Shown here piece after piece: positions 6,735 to 7,035 of a stretch of 64,000 nt of DNA. The stretch spans positions 92,277 to 156,276 of the IMG/VR virus record IMGVR_UViG_3300042934_001067. The stretch is one strand, 5' to 3'. The stretch is from a virus. The translations under genes and the position numbers were made by a program. How positions within the stretch are numbered: position 1 is the stretch's first letter; every line of letters starts with the position of its first letter. Below the pieces are notes generated by a model, which did not search any database, had not been told where the DNA came from, and saw only the letters and a program-made list of their open reading frames with translations.

Positions 6735-7035
6735 ACCTCCGCAAGTGCGGAGCAATCTTGCTGACCACATGGCTTGCGCCGTTGCGATCCACCTCCGCCG
6801 GAGCGGAGCCACACCCCGCCAGTGCGGGGACTACTCGGAATACCAAGCCGAGCCACCCCCGCGTCGGCGGGGAAGAGTCTCAGAGCGCGTCATCACCGTG
6901 CTCTTCAACCGGTACACCCCCGCAGATGCGGGGAGCAACGCACCTCTGCCCTTAACGAGGGCCATCCCCGCAGGTGCGGAGAGCAGTTGTGCACGCCCCT
7001 GAGGCCGGGGCCATCCCCGCTGTCGCGGGGAGCAC
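6729..7035 (-). CRISPR. Cas-less array of seven divergent 29-nt type I-E-like repeats
   Basis: Repeats at 7007-7035, 6958-6986, 6910-6938, 6849-6877, 6806-6834, 6785-6813 and 6729-6757. On the minus strand all follow N5-C(C/T)CCGC-N4-GCGG(G/A)G-N8, e.g. GTGCTCCCCGCGACAGCGGGGATGGCCCC. Spacers are 20, 19, 32, 14, none (8-nt overlap) and 27 nt. Confidence 0.85.

Follow-up and report, generated by a model that had tools for sequence, protein, structure and literature searches.

The virus record IMGVR_UViG_3300042934_001067 (156 kb, complete according to CheckV and carrying a large terminase gene) harbours an I-E-like array of five spacers and seven repeat-like hairpins, located outside any CRISPR-cas locus as judged from a search for cas6e and cas7e, neither of which was found in the record. 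This array is very probably a multiplexed viral anti-CRISPR RNA cassette, i.e. a Cracr array, as indicated by its anatomy, the absence of these two genes, the homology of its guides to CreRs (the self-regulatory RNAs of host I-E systems), their PAM-flanked targets and a conservation focused on the seeds. It adds a new and unusually long member to a known class, whose mechanism has also been described already, extending the Cracr strategy to a larger scale than reported and to Streptomyces-type phages.

By analogy with published systems, the whole array would be transcribed as one minus-strand RNA, cut at each hairpin by the host Cas6e, and each guide would be loaded into the host Cascade, which would then bind upstream of casA by the seed only and lower cas expression, while the array RNAs would also compete for Cas proteins. 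Spacers S1, S2 and S4, and probably S3, would each be a copy of the RNA by which a different Streptomyces I-E lineage regulates itself, and guides drawn from different lineages would thus provide the phage with cover in several hosts. A transcript of ~330 nt may hold guides against at least three, probably four, I-E lineages, with concrete predicted sites that can be tested. This also concerns users of native I-E systems in Streptomyces, in which resident prophages could dampen such systems.

Anatomy and genomic setting of the array

The window analysed here is a 64,000-nt stretch of the record (positions 92,277 to 156,276), in which the array occupies positions 6729-7035, is read on the minus strand and ends in an 11-bp hairpin (Table 1). 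Its repeats are of the 29-nt type I-E, sharing 21–26 of 29 nt with the best-matching repeats of Streptomyces hosts, and all seven differ from one another. The sixth junction is devoid of spacer, R5 and R6 overlapping by 8 nt, and the array RNA is predicted to fold far better than its shuffled versions (z = -6.0). The spacers measure 20, 19, 32, 14 and 27 nt, only one out of five having the 32 nt observed for 1623 of 1686 spacers in host arrays, so that four short spacers in five are far from ordinary. These five strings and their lengths, as read in the first-pass annotation, were recovered exactly and in the right register. Its reading of the 32-mer as coding DNA (SERVITVLFN) was on the wrong strand and has no meaning for a guide, the guides being the reverse complements of the strings that it quoted.

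Table 1. Features of the array, in order of transcription (positions in the window)
Feature	Position	Strand	Remark
Candidate -10 hexamer (TAnnnT)	7043..7048	-	7 nt before R1; identical in orthologue L005; inferred
Repeat R1	7007..7035	-	last 8 nt are the handle of host CreRs in L063, L065 and L202
S1, 20 nt	6987..7006	-	putative mimic of the CreR between cas3 and casA
Repeat R2	6958..6986	-	
S2, 19 nt	6939..6957	-	putative mimic of the CreR from loci with L021-type casA
Repeat R3	6910..6938	-	
S3, 32 nt	6878..6909	-	probably mimics a 32-nt CreR that pairs by its seed; L226 is closest
Repeat R4	6849..6877	-	same stem-loop as the main array repeat of L226
S4, 14 nt	6835..6848	-	putative mimic of the 14-nt CreR family
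Hairpin R5	6814..6834	-	closes the S4 unit; overlaps R6 by 8 nt, no spacer
Repeat R6	6785..6813	-	closest to one I-E repeat lineage, 21/29
S5, 27 nt	6758..6784	-	23 nt in the I-C register
Repeat R7, last	6729..6757	-	runs into the terminal hairpin
11-bp hairpin, probable terminator	6704..6734	-	no U-run; kept with a changed loop in L005

No Rfam match was obtained in the window. A consensus scan found no full promoter, the candidate -10 hexamer having been noticed in the sequence, and the terminal hairpin, which has no U-run, was not called by that scan. The host genus would be Streptomyces, judging from the repeats and from the relatives of a neighbouring gene, which are carried by Streptomyces plasmids of ~90 kb. 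This recombinase-like gene (5622-6572, +) has no Pfam or PHROG match and sits behind a 26-nt inverted repeat (5545-5570 / 5658-5683); the orthologous region of G002 holds no match to it. It was considered as a marker of such arrays and rejected, as the stretch following its relative in L001 contains no array. Other genes of the window include a 92-aa HTH regulator with PHROG matches (8532-8810, -) and, divergent from the array, a 113-aa orphan (7118-7459, +), whose gene start is kept beside the array in G002; together, they possibly form an acr/aca-like arrangement. In addition, a phage gene for a JmjC-domain oxygenase (3336-4256, +) and a gene of the tyrosine integrase family (278-1558, +) were observed.

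Guides resembling host regulatory RNAs

The guides were compared with 121 I-E loci from genomes of a single genus, judged to be Streptomyces from its chaplin domains, and from two named Streptomyces plasmids. About two dozen of these loci possess their own mini-array, with a seed matching an AA-PAM site upstream of casA. S1, S2 and S4 each match a host CreR together with the PAM-flanked site of that CreR upstream of casA, in three different I-E lineages, S4 being represented by one locus. S1 and S2 agree with host CreRs over at least nine PAM-proximal positions, the threshold used for a CreR match, each with an interruption by one wobble-type difference; S3 and S4 agree at 8/10 positions, and S5 has no such match.

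The S1 family corresponds to the host CreRs of L063, L065 and L202, and S1 shares 16 of its 20 nt with the CreR spacers of L065 and L202. Its target lies ~260-330 nt upstream of casA, next to an AAC PAM, with a seed mismatch at position 1. Bases 12-17 are common to S1 and the host CreRs though unmatched to the target, a pattern suggesting that the RNA gene itself was captured. A hexamer resembling the housekeeping -10 box also lies within the S1-family target at two of the three loci, casA promoters being placed by position. The S2 family is found in four host loci (L111, L113, L118 and L165, with casA of the L021 type), its target being located 56-78 nt upstream of casA with an AAC PAM and one seed mismatch, at position 8; S2 shares 9/10 seed positions and nt 12-13 with the CreRs of L113 and L118. 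S4 matches a 14-nt host RNA of L091, whose lineage (L211, L212) likewise uses 14-nt guides, and its candidate target, weaker than those of S1 and S2, lies 131 nt upstream of casA with an AAG PAM and two seed mismatches. An S4-type array was present in one host only among 401 genomes, and the case for S4 as a copied CreR is built on homology and recurrence.

Sites with an AA-PAM and at most one seed mismatch within 400 nt before casA were found for S2 in 4 of the 121 loci, a result equalled by 0.2% of 1848 ordinary host spacers and 0/300 shuffles, and for S1 in 2 loci (2.7% of ordinary spacers and 4% of shuffles), these percentages being a guide only, since relatedness among the host loci makes the counts non-independent and five spacers were compared. 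For the L005 allele of S1, such sites exist in three loci, two of them perfect. The stronger point, at the level of sequence comparison, is that the sites matched by S1, S2 and S4 are those that the CreR RNAs of these hosts themselves target. The proposal of the first-pass annotation that short guides aim at host cas promoters is thereby supported for S1 and S2, whose AAC-flanked seed matches before casA exceed both controls, S4 adding its weaker AAG-flanked match. S3 and S4, whose PAM-flanked matches each involve two seed mismatches, relate to one host locus each, and neither has a site within one seed mismatch. None of these four guides pairs perfectly over the seed with the targets sampled: S1 and S2 have one mismatch each, of the G-T wobble type, and S3 and S4 have two, one of those in S4 being of this type; as a speculation, such mismatches could broaden the host range. 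Within the phage genome itself, self-targets were limited to one-mismatch seed matches with poor overall identity.

A pattern scan of viral contigs revealed 15 loci with short-spacer I-E-like arrays. One of them, L005, is orthologous to the present array and has the same five spacer lengths, with ~93% identity over the array region, most flanking DNA being 84-96% identical. The compared stretches fetched for the other loci have no DNA in common with this genome outside the arrays, yet the guide families of the present array are reused in them. For instance, the S4 family occurs in seven other viral contigs, the S1 family in six, the S2 family in phage Samy as well as in a host genome, at a locus free of cas genes, and the S3 seed in one unrelated contig. 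Fused hairpins similar to R5/R6 are present in L008, L012, L015 and L017. Within families, differences are mostly found at positions 6 and 12 and in the distal part. Positions 6 and 12 are the bases flipped out by Cascade. Spacers are conserved in length and seed among homologous arrays, the opposite of what had been named beforehand as evidence against functional guides. Other phage arrays with other guide families were observed at L006, L009, L010, L012, L014, L015, L017, L022, L142 and L192; for an 18-mer and a 19-21-mer family, AAC-flanked matches lie ahead of casA in L096 and L020, and the 14-mer of L009 perfectly matches L211.

These conserved seeds are what separates the Cracr reading from a pure decoy of the Racr type, in which the RNAs would soak up Cas6e and Cas7 in useless complexes, whatever the spacer sequence. 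The diverse repeats, odd lengths, fused spacer-less hairpins and seed mismatches to the sampled targets would all suit a decoy, and competition, which belongs to the Cracr mechanism too, may be the only role of S5. However, a decoy would not account for seeds kept across unrelated phage loci and matching PAM-flanked sites upstream of casA above controls, and we consider this explanation improbable for the array as a whole.

In the host loci, CreR spacers of ~32 nt with seed-only pairing upstream of their own casA were observed in L081, L082, L084, L088, L210, L098, L101, L103 and L226, in mini-arrays located at most 470 nt upstream of casA. In L111, L113, L118 and L165, the mini-array comes after cas6, ~5.26 kb downstream from where casA starts and on the opposite strand, unlike the location upstream of the cas operon that is usually described.

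The 32-nt spacer and the terminal unit

The first-pass annotation had proposed that the 32-mer, as a canonical guide, could direct cleavage of a competing element. Compared with its orthologue, S3 has one difference in nt 1-16 (position 6) and seven in nt 17-32; its distal half is thus 9/16 identical in a flanking context of mostly 84-92% (binomial P about 0.002, Fisher P 0.037). Searches of 50,697 phages and 72,556 plasmids gave no significant match to it (best E 0.7-0.9). The sequence nearest to it is a host CreR of 32 nt in L226, with two seed differences (one for the L016 allele), and the hairpin following S3 is identical to the stem-loop of the L226 array repeat. No S3-type array was found in 301 genomes, and four metagenome matches to such an array were rejected as chance matches within coding sequence. 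A match of S3 to a conserved casA coding motif was also dropped, with a mismatch at seed position 7 and an L016 allele that does not fit. From these comparisons, S3 is probably a fourth repressing guide, copied from a 32-nt seed-pairing CreR.

A mixed cassette, in which short guides repress and a rival phage or plasmid is cut under the guidance of the 32-mer or S5, would agree with the canonical length of S3, with the conservation of S5 along its full length and with the known existence of viral mini-arrays against other viruses. Shortened spacers lead to Cascades with fewer Cas7 subunits and, in E. coli, priming is supported at 14 nt and interference can take place with spacers above 20 nt (PMC5159557). 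Yet the conservation of S3 is limited to nt 1-16, its distal half being less identical than the flanking DNA, no protospacer was found for it in the collections above, and the S5 matches among viral contigs carry 7-10 mismatches and lack a PAM, making the mixed cassette a distinctly remote alternative. The cleaving role is undercut as well by the many host self-regulatory RNAs of full length with seed-only pairing: a viral 32-nt spacer need not cut. Under the preferred reading as a Cracr array, cutting and repressing guides are told apart here by the extent of pairing, not by length, and the spacer lengths appear to be inherited from the copied host CreR families. The earlier suggestion that lengths follow 32 minus multiples of 6 holds for 14, 20 and 32, which fit whole Cas7 steps, but is weak evidence alone, because a 1-nt tolerance admits half of all lengths and four fits out of four would occur by chance in about 1/16 of cases.

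The last unit is less clear. S5 is kept at 26/27 nt in the orthologue, and no target was found for it in either the 27-nt or the 23-nt (I-C) register: no AA-PAM target in 201 genomes or in the 121 casA upstream regions, and no TTC-flanked target in 10 I-C loci. The end of R6 with the next 4 nt resembles the end of Streptomyces I-C repeats, an end also present in L004 and L008; after the R6 stem, a single G precedes an 11-nt stretch that is one base off this I-C repeat end. One I-E repeat lineage is also a fit for R6 and R7 (21/29), and the metagenomes yielded no other fused unit like that of S5. A last unit (R6 and S5) built for type I-C, with the extra I-E hairpin R5 closing the preceding unit, is an unlikely arrangement, with which one transcript would silence two CRISPR subtypes; S1-S4 point to I-E, and S5 had no match in the 10 I-C loci. 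According to the Cracr survey, arrays crossing subtypes never occur (bioRxiv 10.1101/2024.10.29.618823). In a separate observation, a Streptomyces microflavus plasmid (L235:4230) carries a solitary I-C repeat between cas3 and cas5c, followed by a seed that matches a TTC-flanked site ~160 nt away, likely an I-C CreR.

Relation to known systems

The array does not resemble a canonical CRISPR array: its repeats are not uniform, one spacer in five is 32 nt long, and no full-length protospacer was found in the collections searched. Its degenerate repeats and short spacers could evoke a decaying ordinary array acquired from a host, a reading which is largely refuted by conservation and targets and deserves hardly any credence, the array being no worse conserved in its orthologue than most flanking DNA, its stems intact and its same short spacers found in other phage loci and host cas loci.

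The closest counterparts are the Cracr arrays of Liu et al. (bioRxiv 10.1101/2024.10.29.618823). Their survey counts 219 Cracrs as well as 30 arrays, each holding two or three spacers, with I-E and Actinomycetota among the targets; in Salmonella, an I-E Cracr array lowered the casA transcript by about 30% and restored phage infectivity in a spacer-dependent manner, and seed mutants of CracrIE1 lost the anti-CRISPR effect. Cracr arrays share with the present one a viral location, the lack of detected cas genes (here cas6e and cas7e), a stack of crRNA-like units whose repeats are degenerate, guides with homology to host CreRs, and some spacers without known target. Their units are each directed at a different variant of one subtype, and S1-S4 here point to variants of I-E. 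By contrast, five spacers are chained here instead of two or three, including a 14-nt guide and a full-length 32-nt seed-only guide, with a fused spacer-less junction. The main text of the preprint names Actinomycetota, not the genus Streptomyces. Racrs, as presented in the same source, are likewise phage-encoded repeat mimics that use, and sequester, host Cas proteins, but have no targeting seed, unlike S1, S2 and S4 with their conserved seeds and PAM-flanked targets.

Host CreR mini-arrays (Shmakov et al., bioRxiv 10.1101/2023.03.03.530964) similarly hold, between two repeats, a spacer of partial complementarity directed at the cas8 promoter next to a canonical PAM, and phage copies of them were first noted for I-B and I-F1; the units described here differ in being viral, remote from any cas gene and chained. 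Viral superinfection-exclusion mini-arrays are also virus-borne and borrow the host Cascade, whereas no spacer here had a full-length protospacer in another element of the collections searched. Finally, the cultured phages Cumberbatch and Samy carry arrays of the short-spacer type and represent ready test material.
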